DNA from: Nitrospirota bacterium
Lineage (GTDB): Bacteria > Nitrospirota > UBA9217
Length of the DNA: 30,588 nucleotides
Reading direction: 5' to 3'
Assembly: GCA_027456925.1 (NCBI GenBank)
Contig: DAIDTZ010000048.1
Location: 1 to 30,588 of the forward strand
The position numbers and the translations under genes were made by a program. Positions 14,394-21,527 of this stretch are shown one piece after another; the stretch's first letter is position 1, and every line of letters begins with the position of its first letter. The notes under the pieces were generated by a model. The model was not told where the DNA came from, searched no databases, and was given only the letters and a program-made list of their open reading frames with translations.

Positions 14394-14726
14394 CCTAAAA
14401 AGAGCATTTAACCACGGATTAACACGGATAAACAGCGTTGATTCTAAAAAGAGCAGTTGGACACTGAAGAATCGGATTAACATATGATAAAGGCGGATAA
14501 ATCCTGAACCAAAGCCTTCGCCTTTTGGGGAACTGATTATTAAAGGAAAATCCGCTGTTATCAGGCTTTTATCCGCTTTTATCAGTGTCAAATGCCGTTT
14601 TTAAGTTGATTCAAAGTCCTAAGACAAAAACAAGGAGCGCCGATTGGGTGAAGCTCCCGTTCGAAATAAATTATTGATTTAAGGCCTTAACCGTGTTCAT
14701 CTGTGGTTCCAACTGCCGTTTGTAGG
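14394..14726. mobile_element. Outer MITE-like element (about 165 bp once the nested insert is removed)
   Basis: Left end CCTAAAAAGAGCATTT-AACCACGGAT-TAACACGGAT. Right end AACCGTGTTC-ATCTGTGGTT-CCAACTGCCGTTTGTAGG. Flanked by direct ATAAA (14389-14393 and 14727-14731). Confidence 0.65.
14443..14605. mobile_element. Inner (nested) MITE-like element, 163 bp
   Basis: Left end TCTAAAAAGAGCAGTTGGACACTGA. Right end TCAGTGTCAAATGCCGTTTTTAAG. Subterminal 10-nt units (AAAGGCGGAT / ATCCGCTTTT). Flanked by direct TTGAT (14438-14442 and 14606-14610), extendable to GTTGATTC. Confidence 0.65.
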
Positions 14727-14748
14727 ATAAACAAAAAAGGGGCTCGTT

Positions 14749-15591
14749 ATGAATGACCATGCCATAAACCTTTTTGCTTCGCCCAGTTGACCGCCGTCAG
14801 GCGGCGCCGGAGGTTGCCGACAGGATGGAGCAAAAAGAGCTGGTGGATTTTCTCCTGAAGAGGGGGAAAAGATCAGAAATGCCATACGGAGTAAATACGC
14901 TGAAGTATCCGTTTCGGCAACGGGAAAATTTCAATATCCCACAGGCAAGGACGGCGCTGAGGCGTTAGGATACGATCGTGACCTTATAGAAAGCGCGCCT
15001 GCACGATTTTTCGAATCCTATTGCGGGGTAGGAAATCCATTCTCTCTCGGAAAAATTCTGCCGGGAGACGTCGTGCTCGACTTTGGGTGCGGAGCAGGAT
15101 TCGATCTCTTTGTCGCAAGTAAACTCGTCGGTGAACGCGGACGGGTCTGCGGAATAGATTTGACGGAAGACATGGCAATACGGGCCGGAGAGAACCTCGC
15201 TCTCTCGGGCTTTGCAAACTTCGAGGTCAAAAAAGTTGATTCGGAAACCATCCCCTACCCTGATCATGTCTTTGATGTCGTGATATCGAACGGCGTCATC
15301 AATCTTTCCCCATGCAAGCAGGCCGCCTTCACTGAGATCTACCGCGTCATGAAGCCGGGCGGCAGACTCCAGTTCGCAGATGTAATCCTGGAAAACGATT
15401 TGCCGGCATCCCTGGCAGGAAACGCTGAAGCGTGGTCGCAATGAATAGGCGGCGCGGTCCCGGTTCGGGATCAGGTCGGATTGCTGGAGGAAGCGGGCTT
15501 CAAGGAAGTGGAATACAGGGGGATAACCGGCTTTCGTACGTCACCCTACACCGTGGGCGCCTTGTTCCGGGCGAACAAGGAAGCCCGTTAA
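14749..15591 (+). CDS. ArsM/UbiE-like SAM-dependent methyltransferase, probable selenoprotein with two Sec (U14, U232), 280 aa
   Basis: ATG 14749 with RBS AAGGGG; in-frame TGA at 14788-14790 and 15442-15444; TAA at 15589-15591. Motifs CGVGNP, VLDFGCGAG, GIDLT, FDVVISNGVINL, MKPGGRLQFAD, and WSQ-U-IGGA (ArsM W..CIAGA position). The frame after the second TGA continues as LLEEAGF. No in-frame ATG/GTG/TTG between 14791 and 15072. Confidence 0.85.
14802..14819 (+). promoter_or_regulatory. Candidate bacterial SECIS element for UGA 14788-14790
   Basis: Starts 11 nt after the UGA: CGGCGCC-GGA-GG(T)TGCCG, a stem with a bulged U and a G-containing apical loop. Confidence 0.6.
15456..15472 (+). promoter_or_regulatory. 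Candidate bacterial SECIS element for UGA 15442-15444
   Basis: Starts 11 nt after the UGA: GGTCCCG-GTT-CGGGATC, a 7-bp stem with one G-U pair and a G-containing loop. Confidence 0.7.
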
Positions 15592-15622
15592 CAGCCGGCC
15601 TCCCGGCGCAGGCCCTGACATA

Positions 15623-18079
15623 CTACCTTGCCGGAGCAGCGGCCTTCTCTGCTTCACCGCTATTCCCGTCCTCCTTCTTCTCTTTTTTCTCCTCGCTTTT
15701 TTCTGAAGCAGACAGCTTCTTCGACATGTCTTTGAGCCGCCTGTCCACAAGGAAATTTATCGAACCCTCAGGATAGGTTCCGTCCTCCCTGCGTTCACCT
15801 GCAGGAAGTCCGGTAAGGAGCTCCAGCGCCTCATTCACGGTTTTGACCGAATAGACGTGGAACTTCCCCTCCTTTACGGCTTCCACTACTTCCTTCTTGA
15901 GCATAAGGTTTTTCACGTTGCTCTGCGGAATGATGACCCCCTGGTCTCCGGTCAAACCGCGGTTCCTGCAGACGCCGAAGAACCCCTCGATCTTCTCGTT
16001 CGCCCCGCCGATGGGCTGGATCTCCCCTTTTTGATTGATCGACCCGGTGATGGCGAAGTTCTGCTTGATCGGCACTTCGGCAATGCCTGAAATGAGCGCG
16101 ATTAATTCGGCAGCTGACGCGCTGTCGCCTTCTACCTCTCCGTAGTTCTGCTCAAAGGCAAGAGTCGCGGACACGGACAGCGGTTTATCCTGGGCATAGG
16201 TGCCGCCGAGATAGCCTGAGAGAATGAGCACCGCCTTGTTGTAGATGCGGCCGGCGAGTTTGGCCTCGCGCTCGATGTCGACGACACCTGCTTTGCCGAG
16301 GTACACCCTGCTCGTGATGCGGGACGGTTTGCCGAAATAAAAATCGCCGATATCGTACACGGACAAGCCGTTCACCTGCGCCACCACGGAGCCGGTGACA
16401 TCGACCATGAGCGTTCCTTCGGCGAACATTTCCTGGATGCGCTCGTCGATCAGGTTCGCGCGGTAAAGCTTTTCGTTCAGCGCCTTATCTACGTGCTCGC
16501 CCAGCACGCTCGTCCTTCCTGCTTGCGATGCCCAGTACGACGACTCGCGCACGAGGTCGGAGAGGTCGCTGAAACGCAGCGAGAGCTTGTTCTTTTTTTC
16601 GACCAGGCGGGAGGCATGCTCGACGATCCCCGCCACCGCGCTCCGGCCGAAGGGAAGAAGGCCGTCACTCTTCACCATGTTTGCGATAAAATGCGCATAG
16701 CGCATTTTATCATCCGTTGAACTCGTGGTCTGGGTGTCGAAGTCGGATTTGACCTTGAAGATGTCCTTGAAGTCCTCGTCGTAATTGTACAGCAGGTAAT
16801 AGAGCCAGGGGCTCCCGAGCATGATGATCTTCAGCGCTACGGGAATGGGCTCGGGTTTGATGCCGCCGGCGCCGAAACCGTACAAATCGGCGACGTCCTC
16901 GATCTTCACTTCGTTTTTTTTGATGATCCGCTTGAGCGCGTCCCACGAGAAGGGGTTCCGAAGCACGTCCAGGGCATTCACCAGCAGATATCCGCCGTTC
17001 GCCTGGAGCAACGCCCCCGACCGGATCATGGTAAAGTTCGTGTAGAAGGCCCCGAAGCGCGCCTTGCGCTCGATGCGGCCGACAAGATTGTTGTAGGTTG
17101 GGTTTATCTCTTCGATCACCGGTCCGCCCTTGGTCTCGGAATTATCGACAATGAGGTTTACCTTGTAGCGCTCCAAAAAGCTCCCTTTGTCCATGCCCTC
17201 GATCGGGAAGGGCATCTCCGGCGTCTGGCCCAGGAATTCCCGCAGATTGCCCAGGATGTCCTCCTCCACCTCGCCCAGGAACTCCGGGATGCGCGGGTTG
17301 GCCCCGTATTTTTCCCTCAGGTCGTCGAGCTGGTGGCCCATGGAGAAATGGGCGACGCGCCGGTTTAACTCATGGACTTTTTCATGGGTTTCCTTGTCGA
17401 GCTGGCGGGCCTTGGCAAGAAAATCGCGTATCTCGGAATCGACTTTTTTCTCGTGCTCCTCGAGTTCGCGCTTCTGTTCCGCGGACAGGCTGTCGAGTTC
17501 CTGCGGCTGGAGCGGCTTGCCCTTCCAGAGCGGGACCTTGACGATGCCGGTGCGCGTGATCGTGAGCTGGAACCCCAGCTCGTGCGCCCGTTTCCCGGCG
17601 TCGTCGAACAGGATCTCTTTCGCCTTCTCCGCCTCTTCCACGACGCGGGACTTCTGTTCTTCGTACTCTTTGGACTCGAACACCTTCGGGATCTCGTTCT
17701 GCATGAACTCGATGAACTTTTCCACATCGCGCCTGAAGGCTCCGCCCTTTCCCGGCAAAAGCTTGATGGCCCGCGGCCGGTCGGGGTCCTTGAAGTTGTT
17801 GATGTAGCACCAGTCGTCGGGCACCGGGAGGTCCCGGGAGATCCGTTTGATGATCGACTTGGCAATGGAGTTTCTGCCCGTGCCCGGAACGCCGGACACG
17901 AAAATATTGTAGCCGTGATTGCGGATGGAAAGGCCGAACTCGATCGACTTCACGGCCCGCGCCTGGCCGATCACTTCTTCCTTCGGGGAAAGTTCAGACG
18001 TGGTCTGAAACGGGAATTCCGCCGGATCACAGACGTGACGCAGTTCGGAAAGCGCTACTTCACGTTCTTCGATATTCAT
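15623..18079 (-). CDS. Lon-like (LonC/LonB-type, AAA_32 + Lon_C) protease
   Basis: Start ATG 18079 with RBS AAGGAGG (MNIEEREVALSELR). Motifs IGQARA, GVPGTGR, GALLQANGGYL, VNGLSV, and a Ser-Lys dyad in EGDSASAAE / PIGGANEKIEGFF. Confidence 0.9.
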   Translation of the reverse strand: MNIEEREVALSELRHVCDPAEFPFQTTSELSPKEEVIGQARAVKSIEFGLSIRNHGYNIFVSGVPGTGRNSIAKSIIKRISRDLPVPDDWCYINNFKDPDRPRAIKLLPGKGGAFRRDVEKFIEFMQNEIPKVFESKEYEEQKSRVVEEAEKAKEILFDDAGKRAHELGFQLTITRTGIVKVPLWKGKPLQPQELDSLSAEQKRELEEHEKKVDSEIRDFLAKARQLDKETHEKVHELNRRVAHFSMGHQLDDLREKYGANPRIPEFLGEVEEDILGNLREFLGQTPEMPFPIEGMDKGSFLERYKVNLIVDNSETKGGPVIEEINPTYNNLVGRIERKARFGAFYTNFTMIRSGALLQANGGYLLVNALDVLRNPFSWDALKRIIKKNEVKIEDVADLYGFGAGGIKPEPIPVALKIIMLGSPWLYYLLYNYDEDFKDIFKVKSDFDTQTTSSTDDKMRYAHFIANMVKSDGLLPFGRSAVAGIVEHASRLVEKKNKLSLRFSDLSDLVRESSYWASQAGRTSVLGEHVDKALNEKLYRANLIDERIQEMFAEGTLMVDVTGSVVAQVNGLSVYDIGDFYFGKPSRITSRVYLGKAGVVDIEREAKLAGRIYNKAVLILSGYLGGTYAQDKPLSVSATLAFEQNYGEVEGDSASAAELIALISGIAEVPIKQNFAITGSINQKGEIQPIGGANEKIEGFFGVCRNRGLTGDQGVIIPQSNVKNLMLKKEVVEAVKEGKFHVYSVKTVNEALELLTGLPAGERREDGTYPEGSINFLVDRRLKDMSKKLSASEKSEEKKEKKEDGNSGEAEKAAAPAR

Positions 18080-18110
18080 GCGGCCTCCTTCACCGAAACG
18101 CTCTACTTCA

Positions 18111-18139
18111 AGTGTATGCACTGCATCCGCTGTTGTCAA
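18111..18139 (-). promoter_or_regulatory. Candidate sigma70 promoter for the Lon-like protease
   Basis: Minus strand TTGACA (18139-18134), a 17-nt spacer, then TACACT (18116-18111). Confidence 0.6.
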
Positions 18140-18188
18140 GGCAACCGTTTCCTCAGGGAGAGGTCCTGCGCGGAAGAAAAATAAGATG

Positions 18189-18217
18189 TTGATTTTTTCT
18201 CGTGCCGCTCTTATAAT
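18189..18217 (+). promoter_or_regulatory. Candidate sigma70 promoter for the STAND regulator
   Basis: TTGATT (18189-18194), a 17-nt spacer, then TATAAT (18212-18217). Confidence 0.65.
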
Positions 18218-18290
18218 CGCCGCATTCATACATTCATCGTTCATGACCCGGCAGCTGGCAGCAACACCCTGTCGAATGAAGGAGGCTTTT

Positions 18291-21200
18291 ATGAATCCTG
18301 CCAAGTTTCTTCCGCCCAGGCCGGTCCGGGTGTTCGAGCGCGATCAGCTGATGAACAAACTTGCGGCCTGGGAAGACAAAAAGTTGCGCCTCGTCCACGC
18401 GCAGGCAGGCCAGGGCAAGAGCACGCTTGTTGCAAGCTACATCAAATCGCTGGCCTCGCCGTCGGTATGGTACAATCTGGACCAGGAAGACGAAAACCCC
18501 GGCGTATTCCTCTCGTCGCTGGGCAAGGCGGTCCAGCAAACGTGGCAAGATCGCCTGCCCACGCTGCCCCCGGTCCCGCACCGCTACGGCATGGGCCAGA
18601 TCCATCAGGGACTCGACCAGTGGGTCCGTCTGGTTTTCCATAACCTTCCTGATACAAGCTTGATCGTATTCGATGATTTCGCCGGCACACCTTCAGGGTC
18701 CCTGGAACAGCTCCTCAAAATGCTGATTGCGTCCACGCCGCCCTCTGTCCGGTTTCTGGTCATCTCCCGGACGCGGCCGGAGCTCGAAATTGCGAAGCTT
18801 CGCGCCACACAGTCCGTCGGCGAACTTACCGGAGAAGACCTCCGGTTCAGCGACGCCGAAGTGCAGGACCTCTTCACGATCATCTTCCGCATGCAGATTT
18901 CCGAGACCGAGGCGGCGCTCATCAACGCCACCGCGGAAGGCTGGCCCGCCGGGCTCGTGCTGATGCACGAGTATCTCTCAACCCTCTCTCCGAAGGCCCG
19001 CTCGCTTGCGCTCATCGACCGGCGCTCCACGGGGTTCCGGACCCATGTCTTCGATTACCTGGCCCAGGAAGTGTTCGTACACCTCCCGCAGGAACTGCAG
19101 CAGTTCCTCCTCCGGACGTCGATCGCCGATTATCTTTCCGCCCCGCTCATGGCGCACCTGACCGGCCTGCCGCGAACGCATGCGGGCCGCGGGAAAGCGT
19201 CGGTCGCCGGCATGGTAAAAGAGCTCAGGAGCAGAAACCTTTTCGTAACCGCGATGGACAGTGATGCGTCGGTGATCCGCTATCACGCCCTGTTCCGGGA
19301 ATTTCTTCGCAAAAAGCTGGTTGCCCAGACAAAACCGTCTGAAGTGAAGAAGCTCTATACTTCCGCCGCAACGTATTTCCTGAAAGCGGGAGACGTGGTC
19401 CGGAGCATAGACCTTCTCATCGCTTCCGGCCAGTTCGAGCAGGCCATCAGGCAGATCGAGCAGGCAGGCGAAGACCTCATCGTTCGCGGGCAGGCGCGTA
19501 CCCTTATCCGTTGGATCGAGGCGCTTCCGCTCGAATACGGCAACCGCCCCTGGTTCCTCTTTTCCCGCGCCGTGGCATGCCGCTACACCGACCCCCGCAC
19601 GGCGCTCGCTTTTTTCGATCTCGCGTTTAAGGGTTTTCGGTCCTCCGGCGCGGCCTACCATCGGAGCGCAGGGCAGATGCTGTCGCTCTGCGGGATCATC
19701 GAGACCTGCTTCTATGCAGGCGGAAACTTCAAACGGATGACGCGCGCCGCCGCAACGGCAAGCGCGCTGCTGAAGCGTACAACGCAGAAATCGCCCGACG
19801 CGCGTTCCCGCTTGCTTCTGGCGCTCGGTACCGCCTGTTTTTTCATCGGGAAACTCCAGCAGGGCGCCGAAGCGTTGCAAGGGGCGCTCGACGCCTTTCG
19901 CAGGTCGCGCGACCATTATCACCAGATCCAAAGCGCGATTTATCTTGCGCCCTGCGCCATCTACCTGGGGAACTTCAGGTTGGCGCGCGAAGCGATTCGA
20001 AAGGGCTTCGAAGCCCACGCCTCTATCCCCGAGGAATCGGGGGCCGGAGCGGCCCTGTCCATGGCCCAGGCCATGACTGCGCTGTTCGAGGGACAATTTG
20101 CCGAGGCCCAGGCATGCATCGACAAATGCCAAAGCCTTTCGCAGGAACATGAGCTTGAGGCCTTCGATTTCCTTTCCCTCGACATCGGCGGATGGCTCAA
20201 GACCGCGCTGGCAGACTATGATCACGCCGATCAGCTGCTTCAGCAATGCAAAAGCAAGGGGGAAGAACTGCAGAACGCATTTTTCAACGCGTCGGCGGCG
20301 CATTTGCTCGCAATAAATTACCTCCACCAGAACAAGCTCGATGCGGCCCAGGCCGAGGCGGACTATGCGCTTGCGGTCAGGTCGCAGTCCGGCAGCAGCC
20401 TTTTTTATGCACTGTCGCTCTCGGTAAGCGGGGCCCTCGAGCTTAAGCACGGCAGAATACAAAAAGCCGAGCGGATGCTGAACGAGGCGCTCTCGCTATT
20501 CCGCAGGAACGGGGCCGCTCAACAGGAAGCGAACGTGCTGCTTCTCCTGGCAGAGCTGAGCGCGCAAAAAAAACGGAGCCGCGAGTTCAGGGAGTTTCTT
20601 CACTGGGGTCTTGCGATCGGCCGGGAACGGGGGTTTACCTACTATGCTCTCTTCACCCGGGCGGACATGGAGAATCTCGTTCGCAGTGCCCTCGCAGAAA
20701 ACATCTGTGTTGACTACTGCGAAACGCTGCAGAAAAAATTCCGGGAAGGGACGAGCGCATCGTCCATCAGAATATGCTGTTTCAACGGATTCAAGGTCTT
20801 CCGCGACCGCGAGAGGATTACCGACGGCCTGTGGAAAAGCACCCGGGCAAAAACACTTTTGAAAATTCTCGCATCCCGCGACGGGTTGACCCTGCCGCGG
20901 GATACGGCGCTGGAACTGCTCTGGCCGGGAGACCGGCCGGAATCGCCGAACCAGTCACTGAACAGCATGCTTTCGCGCATTCGAAAGGTCCTGGAGCCTG
21001 CGGTCCGAGACGATGGGGGCGATTCCTGCCTGTCTCTGAAGGACGGGGTTCTCATGCTCGACGCGAGCCGCGTCTGGACCGACGTGGGACAATTTCATAC
21101 CCACATCGAAAATGCGGAACGTTTGAAGGTGCGCGGAAAGACCGAGCAGGCGATGGAAGAATACTCCCAGGCGGTCATGCTCTACCAGGGCGATTTTTTG

Positions 21201-21527
21201 CCGGAAGACCTCTCCGCGGACTGGACAGCCGCGGTTCGCGACCAGCTTCAAACTCGCTACCTGCGGGCGCTTGAGGCCATGGCAACCATGGCCGAAGGGA
21301 CCAGCGACAGTGAAAAAACCCGCACCGTCTATGAAAAATTGTTCCTTGCCGATCCGTGCAATGAAAACGCCTGCTGCTGGCTCATGACGCAGTACCACTC
21401 AGACGGCCGGCGCAGCGACGCGATACGCGCCTATGAGCGGTGCGAGCTGGCATTAGGCAGGGACCTGGACCTTGAGCCTGAGGAGCGGACGAAAAAACTG
21501 TACCGGGGTATTCTGGGAGGTGATTGA
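18291..21527 (+). CDS. MalT-like STAND ATPase-TPR transcriptional regulator with C-terminal SARP-type wHTH and BTAD domain (1078 aa)
   Basis: Start ATG 18291 after AAGGAGG. KFLPP..R..L, Walker A AQAGQGKST, WYNLDQED, Walker B LIVFDD, EGWPAGL, FDYLAQEV, YHALFREFL, then TPR-like helices. C-terminus has LLELLWP-like TALELLWP, VWTDV, LYQGDFL, DPCNE and AYERC..L..DLDLEP. Confidence 0.88.
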   Translation: MNPAKFLPPRPVRVFERDQLMNKLAAWEDKKLRLVHAQAGQGKSTLVASYIKSLASPSVWYNLDQEDENPGVFLSSLGKAVQQTWQDRLPTLPPVPHRYGMGQIHQGLDQWVRLVFHNLPDTSLIVFDDFAGTPSGSLEQLLKMLIASTPPSVRFLVISRTRPELEIAKLRATQSVGELTGEDLRFSDAEVQDLFTIIFRMQISETEAALINATAEGWPAGLVLMHEYLSTLSPKARSLALIDRRSTGFRTHVFDYLAQEVFVHLPQELQQFLLRTSIADYLSAPLMAHLTGLPRTHAGRGKASVAGMVKELRSRNLFVTAMDSDASVIRYHALFREFLRKKLVAQTKPSEVKKLYTSAATYFLKAGDVVRSIDLLIASGQFEQAIRQIEQAGEDLIVRGQARTLIRWIEALPLEYGNRPWFLFSRAVACRYTDPRTALAFFDLAFKGFRSSGAAYHRSAGQMLSLCGIIETCFYAGGNFKRMTRAAATASALLKRTTQKSPDARSRLLLALGTACFFIGKLQQGAEALQGALDAFRRSRDHYHQIQSAIYLAPCAIYLGNFRLAREAIRKGFEAHASIPEESGAGAALSMAQAMTALFEGQFAEAQACIDKCQSLSQEHELEAFDFLSLDIGGWLKTALADYDHADQLLQQCKSKGEELQNAFFNASAAHLLAINYLHQNKLDAAQAEADYALAVRSQSGSSLFYALSLSVSGALELKHGRIQKAERMLNEALSLFRRNGAAQQEANVLLLLAELSAQKKRSREFREFLHWGLAIGRERGFTYYALFTRADMENLVRSALAENICVDYCETLQKKFREGTSASSIRICCFNGFKVFRDRERITDGLWKSTRAKTLLKILASRDGLTLPRDTALELLWPGDRPESPNQSLNSMLSRIRKVLEPAVRDDGGDSCLSLKDGVLMLDASRVWTDVGQFHTHIENAERLKVRGKTEQAMEEYSQAVMLYQGDFLPEDLSADWTAAVRDQLQTRYLRALEAMATMAEGTSDSEKTRTVYEKLFLADPCNENACCWLMTQYHSDGRRSDAIRAYERCELALGRDLDLEPEERTKKLYRGILGGD

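Follow-up and report, generated by a model that had tools for sequence, protein, structure and literature searches.

The window analyzed here, a stretch of 30,588 nt, is contig DAIDTZ010000048.1 of assembly GCA_027456925.1 (contig C48 in our numbering), which is assigned to a Nitrospirota bacterium; the metagenome-assembled genome (MAG) from which it comes has a size of 2.83 Mb, is distributed over 462 contigs and is 92% complete. On its forward strand, at positions 14749-15591, lies a gene that is very probably a real double selenoprotein gene and whose product resembles the methyltransferase ArsM. When TGA is translated as selenocysteine (Sec, U), a single frame runs from ATG to TAA and specifies 280 residues, with TGA at codons 14 and 232; the product ends in ...NKEAR and has no C-terminal Sec. 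A profile search of the MAG found no second ArsM-like gene. A preliminary description of the locus, made from the sequence alone, had reported this 280-residue frame, its two TGA codons and an ATG preceded by a ribosome-binding site, and translation showed that account to be accurate throughout. It had also stated that the gene is largely missed by open reading frame (ORF) calling; indeed, with translation table 11 the only ORF obtained in the frame of the gene is 15073-15444, of 123 codons and with a GTG start. The gene and the elements that we assign to it are the following.

14749-15591, forward strand: predicted selenoprotein gene for an ArsM-like S-adenosylmethionine (SAM) methyltransferase with U14 and U232 (translation, family matches, orthologues and an AlphaFold2 (AF2) model)

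14737-14742, forward strand: Shine-Dalgarno-like AAGGGG (GGGG) run, 6 nt ahead of the ATG (read from the sequence)

14749-14835, forward strand: N-terminal arm, residues 1-29, with U14 and C23, predicted to be disordered (predicted local distance difference test (pLDDT) below 50; codon periodicity)

14788-14790, forward strand: first UGA (UGA1), read as U14, context ASPS-U-PPSG (translation and orthologue comparison)

14800-14819, forward strand: putative hairpin 1, either GGCGGC/GUUGCC (14800-14818) or CGGCGCC-GGAG-GUUGCCG, 11 nt past UGA1 (folds and hairpin enumeration)

14848-15585, forward strand: ArsM-type methyltransferase core, residues 34-279, with the invariant C92 (CGVGNP) and the SAM-binding LDFGCGAG (NCBIfam matches and alignment to CmArsM)

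15442-15444, forward strand: second UGA (UGA2), read as U232, context AWSQ-U-IGGA (translation and alignment to PDB entries 4FR0, 4KW7 and 5EG5)

15456-15472, forward strand: putative hairpin 2, GGUCCCG-GUU-CGGGAUC, 7 bp, 11 nt past UGA2, with an optional outer stem at 15450-15478 (fold and covariation)

The conservation of the two in-frame TGA codons at their places across orthologues is, judged from the sequence comparisons, far beyond what chance would produce. A species-level scan with one genome per species yielded 230 relatives, and among the best 80 of these, for which the taxonomy is given, are Nitrospirota/Thermodesulfovibrionia, Desulfobulbales and other Desulfobacterota, including the cultured Desulfopila aestuarii DSM 18488, as well as single MAGs of Chloroflexota, Methylomirabilales and Brocadia. 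The D. aestuarii orthologue is located at L114:2878-3741 (NZ_FRFE01000016.1), with the predicted Sec contexts G-G-U-P-P and W-V-Q-U-I-G-G. The set used for the analysis of loci comprised 79 loci from Nitrospirota, Desulfobacterota and other groups. The second TGA is present in 78 of them, in the context W-[SAV]-[QHED]-U-[IV]-G-G, and the N-terminal TGA in 72, in the context U-[P/A/G]-P. In most of these 72 loci an ATG is found exactly 13 codons 5' of the first TGA, and it is preceded in orthologues by GGAG/GAGG-type runs at the place equivalent to that of the Shine-Dalgarno-like run in the window. Orthologues that keep both TGA codons in place share 53-91% identity. A set of 61 related genomes contained 17 strong orthologues; in 13 of these, two TGA codons lie within the match, and the alignments of the other four begin after codon 14. 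A sample of 401 genomes of the phylum contained 31 carriers, 23 of them among the 63 genomes of the window's own family; two TGA codons were present in every match whose alignment reaches codon 14, and no carrier in this sample had a sense codon at either site. Furthermore, in an alignment of 50 full-length orthologues (A4), U14, C92 and U232 are the sole invariant residues of the Cys type. About six loci, belonging to Methylomirabilales, Brocadia and some Nitrospirota (L101, L103, L105, L110 and L116 among these), encode an armless form, which starts just before the first helix and contains the second Sec only, in the context W-S-[ED]-U-[IV]-G-G. Because some lineages do without it, we regard the arm as an add-on to the C92/U232 core.

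The same codons are found in DNA assembled independently of the MAG. Logan contigs from three studies (mine drainage, wetland and mine-tailings metagenomes) cover both TGA codons, one of them being a relative with 94% identity that spans the whole gene, and no difference at either TGA was seen among the Logan matches listed. DNA of the gene was encountered mainly in mine-drainage and mine-tailings metagenomes. In addition, a 151-nt contig of a soil metatranscriptome spans UGA2, which is a weak indication that the gene is expressed.

Trp at both sites in homologues had been named in the preliminary description as a sign that would speak against Sec. Full-length metagenome homologues with 55-74% identity and a Trp at both positions do exist, but they very likely give a false alarm: the translation of the one that was checked, P0005, equals its record only if TGA is read as Trp. 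The other homologues of this kind are therefore very likely gene calls made with genetic code 4 on short contigs, and hence very likely further carriers of two TGA codons instead of proteins containing Trp. Trp as the real residue at both sites was thus rejected as an artefact of gene calling. Many further matches have a length of 193 residues and correspond to the piece between the two TGA codons.

The Sec machinery for which the preliminary description recommended a search is present in the MAG: selA, selB and selD score 611, 371 and 371 bits, respectively, in each case above the curated cut-off, and a tRNA-Sec with anticodon TCA (UCA) was identified by ARAGORN. Both UGA codons are almost certainly decoded as Sec by means of SelA, SelB, SelD and tRNA-Sec, as far as gene content and codon conservation can tell. 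We also considered, and rejected, a genome-wide reassignment of TGA. Four of the 15 long ORFs of the window end at an ordinary TGA stop, which argues that the recoding is specific to the site and does not reflect a change of the code. The selD gene of the MAG (C136:904-1818 of genome G000; L010) itself has one in-frame TGA, which indicates that its selenophosphate synthetase is a selenoprotein too.

Evidence that translation passes through the first UGA comes from the pattern of conservation around it and from the positions of start codons. In the 72 orthologues having the N-terminal TGA, three-base periodicity in the frame of the gene extends to both sides of UGA1. The second codon after it is CC-N (Pro), with an information content of 1.4, 1.75 and 0.07 bits at positions 1, 2 and 3, respectively, and codons -3 and -2 before it show the same periodic pattern. 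In the window, the first in-frame ATG, GTG or TTG to follow the first TGA is the GTG at 15073. In 33 of the 72 orthologues, the window included, the interval from UGA1 to the first conserved helix contains none of these three codons; 59 of the 72 have no ATG in it. Since this helix is part of the family core, in genes without a start codon after UGA1 it can be made only by reading through UGA1. The statement in the preliminary description that the N-terminal family segment depends on such readthrough is thereby borne out.

Each UGA appears to be followed by a short hairpin of its own that resembles a selenocysteine insertion sequence (SECIS) element, located 9-11 nt downstream, as predicted by folding and covariation. 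For hairpin 2, 92% of the cells are paired across 78 sequences, and both sides have changed in five of the seven pairs; pair 19-33, for instance, is AU in 32, GC in 29 and GU in 12 sequences, and several of the swaps from C-G to U-A also alter amino acids. None of 500 shuffles reached these values, slid controls gave lower ones, and the spacer between UGA2 and the hairpin is 11 nt in 65 of the 78 sequences. The hairpin after UGA1 occurs in orthologues in two registers that are one codon apart, with 67-70% pairing for each when the mixed set is considered; covariation is above that of shuffles for both registers, though weaker than in hairpin 2, and GGUC loops are frequent. When windows of each gene stepped by codons were ranked by folding energy, the median rank was 8% after UGA1 and 6% after UGA2. 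The fold z-scores of hairpins 1 and 2 in the single sequence of the window (-1.0 and -0.4, respectively) are unremarkable, and the support for the hairpins therefore comes from the comparison across orthologues. It should be noted that a conserved peptide following U14, G-G-x-G-x-C, overlaps hairpin 1, and that its conservation may thus be driven in part by the RNA. A scan for promoters and terminators around the gene returned nothing useful.

The assignment of the protein as ArsM-like, which is based on its fold and on the Sec in its active site, is firm. Residues 34-279 match the NCBIfam models NF041537, NF047649 and NF041536 (E-values of 1e-84 to 5e-88), and also NF008823, and no NCBIfam model covers residues 1-33. 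The scores for the first three models (295, 290.6 and 284 bits, respectively) are well under their cut-offs (510, 460 and 575 bits) because the C-terminal modules that define these families are absent: the match to NF047649 stops at position 249 of the 283 positions of the profile, without the U-x-P-K-stop tail, and in NF041537 and NF041536 only profile positions 5-250 are matched, with neither an AhpD nor a DUF2284 domain. Pfam recognizes class I methyltransferase domains, with PF13847 as the best (99 bits) and PF13649 as a secondary match (68 bits). The AF2 model, built from 50 orthologues, has a mean pLDDT of 89.2, with values below 50 for residues 1-29, which suggests that these form a disordered arm. 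A Foldseek search of the PDB gave ArsM or AS3MT structures as its top 13 matches (TM-score by query of 0.56-0.69, 28-32% identity).

The residues of the active site were mapped by HMMER alignment to CmArsM (4FR0, 4KW7 and 5EG5). U232 aligns with the catalytic Cys224 of CmArsM ('wsqUIGGA' versus 'ygeCLGGA'), in agreement with the earlier proposal that the second UGA occupies the position of a conserved Cys of arsenite methyltransferases. C92, in the invariant CGVGNP, lies two residues ahead of the position of Cys72, which is Val here. Given that the scores are below every curated cut-off and that Cys174 and Cys44 have no counterparts, the protein is to be regarded as a variant and not as a canonical ArsM. 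Among orthologues, the distance from U14 to the Cys of CGVGNP ranges from 69 to 98 residues. A Cys close to U14 is present in 64 of the 72 arms; its position is +9 in 44, -7 in 11 and -1 in six of them.

Selenoprotein methyltransferases have been described before. As summarized in a 2026 review (PMC13188914), Sec-containing ArsM proteins have one Sec in a UxxG motif (Fomenko et al. 2007, Science 315:387), and NF047649 (methyltransferase/UXPK-star), NF041537 (ArsM/AhpD) and NF041536 (ArsM/DUF2284) represent families of double or triple selenoproteins (Haft & Tolstoy 2025). The same review lists MduS (PF13649, CxxU motif, two Sec, WP_332845911.1; Haft & Tolstoy 2025), and it brings the number of curated methyltransferase families with two or three Sec to at least four. 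Hence, the view of the preliminary description that two Sec residues are uncommon in a bacterial methyltransferase no longer holds. The family name MduS, which it had mentioned, is a real, published one.

Our protein shares its fold with the Sec-ArsM proteins of NF008823, and its U232, in W-S-Q-U-I-G-G, corresponds to their UxxG Sec, which replaces Cys224. It differs from them by a second invariant Sec, at position 14 on an N-terminal arm, and by its score of 197 bits against a cut-off of 263. With the families of NF047649, NF041537 and NF041536, its best sequence matches, it has in common that an ArsM-like Sec core is combined with a further module bearing another Sec; however, their C-terminal module is absent here and the second Sec is instead N-terminal, in M-x12-U-P-P. 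The Cys-only enzymes CmArsM, CrArsM and human AS3MT (4FR0, 6CX6, 5EVJ and 8XT7) share the fold, the SAM motif and the equivalent of Cys224, but their set of Cys 44, 72, 174 and 224 is reduced here to C92 (shifted by two) and U232, our protein lacks their C-terminal domain of some 100 residues, and the N-terminal arm with its selenol has been added. As for MduS, the likeness consists of a methyltransferase domain with two Sec residues and of PF13649, which also matches our protein. The comparison with MduS could be made by the descriptors given in the review only, and by these the two differ, in that our protein has no CxxU (the contexts being S-P-S-U-P-P and W-S-Q-U-I-G) and PF13847 as its best Pfam match. 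No MduS model was among the NCBIfam matches listed for the 280-residue protein, and NF045647, which was considered as a possible MduS model, was rejected as it is the unrelated alr0857_fam. In our literature search, MduS was found in the 2026 review PMC13188914 alone, and no mention of methyltransferases was found in BSepDB. We estimate the chance that our protein is identical with MduS at roughly one in four. An active-site Sec at the site of Cys224 is already known, and what appears to be new is the N-terminal arm with a second Sec; the U-P-P arm is absent from the curated models and catalogues that we compared, which for MduS refers to its descriptors only.

Canonical ArsM works by a disulfide cascade, in which Cys44 and Cys72 together with thioredoxin re-open the bond at each turnover. 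We propose, with a probability of about 0.6, that the gene encodes a SAM methyltransferase of 280 residues with an ArsM fold, in which both UGA codons are read as Sec with the help of their own hairpins, C92 and U232 form a metalloid site, and the arm contributes a selenol. In the mechanism that we envisage, which is modelled on the ArsM disulfide cascade and on the design of the sister families, the C92/U232 pair of the core would bind a soft metalloid (arsenite or similar As, Se or Te species), which would then be methylated from SAM. The selenol of U14 would swing into the site, where it would provide the third ligand that is missing and/or, as a resolving reductant, open again the Se-S bond arising from reduction of the pentavalent intermediate. 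In the sister families, this task would fall to the UXPK tail at the C-terminus, the AhpD domain or the DUF2284 domain. By this analogy, the U14 arm may play an accessory role that enhances turnover, with which the existence of armless, single-Sec relatives fits. We also put forward, more tentatively and with slightly less than even odds, that proteins with the M-x12-U-P-P arm constitute a widespread, uncatalogued double-Sec family in which an obligate Sec serves as a swinging selenol for an ArsM-like Sec site.

Several observations weigh against this proposal. The preliminary description suggested looking for U or Cys at positions 14 and 232 of homologues; U was indeed found at both, but Cys was found only at 232. 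No Cys variant at U14 was present in the 79 loci or the 401-genome sample, and a search with residues 1-60 aimed at Cys14 forms gave five candidates, none of which was significant. Consequently, the classic pairing of Sec with a homologous Cys applies to U232 only. At the position of U14, the only sense variant is the Ser encoded at L096:74-850, a locus lying at the edge of a contig of a Geobacter MAG; this locus retains the second TGA, two adjacent Cys residues (CC) occupy +9/+10 of its arm, and it could be either a natural variant with an inactive arm or an assembly variant. Also unfavorable are the lesser uniformity of the UGA1 hairpin compared with that of UGA2 (two registers, and a z-score of -1.0 for the fold in the window), the score for NF008823 (PRK11873; 197.3 bits for the protein and 190.3 bits in the genome search, with a cut-off of 263), and the active site, in which the positions of Cys172 and Cys174 of CmArsM are taken by Gly and Ile, with the loss of Cys174, and in which the HMMER alignment reveals no equivalent of Cys44. 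Neither an ars operon nor a conserved neighbor was found in the window or the orthologous loci. Finally, no SECIS element or other Rfam family reached the gathering threshold in the window, and at E<=10 the region 14700-15620 gave a chance microRNA match only; since the shortness of bacterial SECIS elements puts them beyond the reach of Rfam models, the missing match is not evidence against the proposal.

These observations bear on explanations other than ours. One is that only UGA2 encodes Sec, and that UGA1 ends a leader upstream ORF (uORF) of 13 codons, downstream of which the enzyme is begun by reinitiation or at a non-canonical start. The constant distance between the ATG and UGA1 would fit a conserved short uORF as well, as would the missing Cys homologue of U14 and the lineages that make the enzyme without an arm, and 39 of the 72 orthologues do have some ATG, GTG or TTG between UGA1 and the first helix. 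However, the window and the rest of the 33 orthologues without any of these codons, as well as the 59 without an ATG, speak against such a leader, and conservation after UGA1 is of the protein type, in the same frame, with U-[P/A/G]-P and free third positions. Moreover, most orthologues have a hairpin with GGUC-type loops at SECIS spacing after UGA1, and the sister families likewise carry their second Sec on an appended module. We therefore consider this explanation very improbable. Still less credence, close to none, can be given to the idea that the TGA codons are assembly errors or that the gene is a decaying pseudogene. The fragmentation of the MAG into its 462 contigs and its low coverage would allow for it, but the same TGA codons recur in dozens of independent genomes of several phyla and in the contigs of the three separate studies, and the whole frame is under purifying selection.

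A more serious competitor accepts both Sec residues and questions the substrate, which might be a Se or S compound or a small-molecule thiol instead of a metalloid, or the arm selenol might itself carry the methyl group or the substrate. That the protein scores under the curated ArsM cut-off, lacks the As-binding Cys174 and Cys44, has the equivalent of Cys72 shifted by two and is found in a context devoid of ars genes is in line with such a function, as is the DedA/VTT membrane protein encoded directly downstream in nine loci. On the other hand, ArsM or AS3MT proteins make up both the closest families by sequence and all the best matches by structure, and the equivalent of Cys224, the best conserved As ligand, has been kept, as Sec; the predominance of mine-drainage and mine-tailings metagenomes among the sources of the DNA points in the same direction, but is weak, circumstantial evidence. 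On balance, a non-metalloid substrate seems unlikely, though clearly less so than the uORF, and we favor the metalloid site with its arm selenol.

The surroundings of the gene vary among loci. The commonest neighbor is the gene for the DedA/VTT-domain membrane protein, which immediately follows the selenoprotein gene in the same orientation at nine of about 78 loci (L073:1221-1955 and eight others); genes for phosphoenolpyruvate carboxykinase (PEPCK), SUI1 and aldehyde dehydrogenase are neighbors in small clades only. The neighborhoods pointed to no functional partner. In the window, the gene is flanked by an ABC transporter gene and by a convergent gene for a Lon-like protease. The latter, at 15623-18304 on the reverse strand, encodes a LonB/LonC-like AAA+ protease, and its ORF overlaps by about 230 nt with the start of a divergent ORF of 1149 codons for a TPR/BTAD regulator (18078-21527, forward strand), which makes it probable that the start has been wrongly placed in one of the two ORFs. 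Just 5' of the selenoprotein gene, at 14630-14730, the sequence is a dispersed repeat with a length of about 97 nt. Other contigs of the MAG (C116, C158, C233, C211 and C175) hold at least five nearly complete copies with 93-97% identity, in addition to partial ones. Metagenome contigs break at this repeat, where the summed depth goes from about 7 to 164, and it looks like an element of the miniature inverted-repeat transposable element (MITE) or repetitive extragenic palindromic (REP) type.

Whatever its substrate, the gene is poorly served by standard annotation, which cuts it to a fragment of 123 or 193 residues or masks it by Trp calls under code 4. As a result, a common enzyme of bacteria from anaerobic sediment, aquifers and mine drainage is systematically mis-annotated. 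If the proposed role of the arm is correct, its N-terminal position would make it a third solution, beside the UXPK tail and the fusions to AhpD or DUF2284, and it would parallel in bacteria the mobile Sec tail that thioredoxin reductase possesses; the uncatalogued family defined by it would extend over Nitrospirota/Thermodesulfovibrionia, Desulfobulbales and others. The arm, considered together with the three curated sister families, points to a second, mobile selenol as a general requirement of ArsM-like selenoenzymes. This idea bears on the microbial methylation of arsenic and related metalloids under anoxic conditions, and the cultured carrier Desulfopila aestuarii DSM 18488 makes it directly testable.

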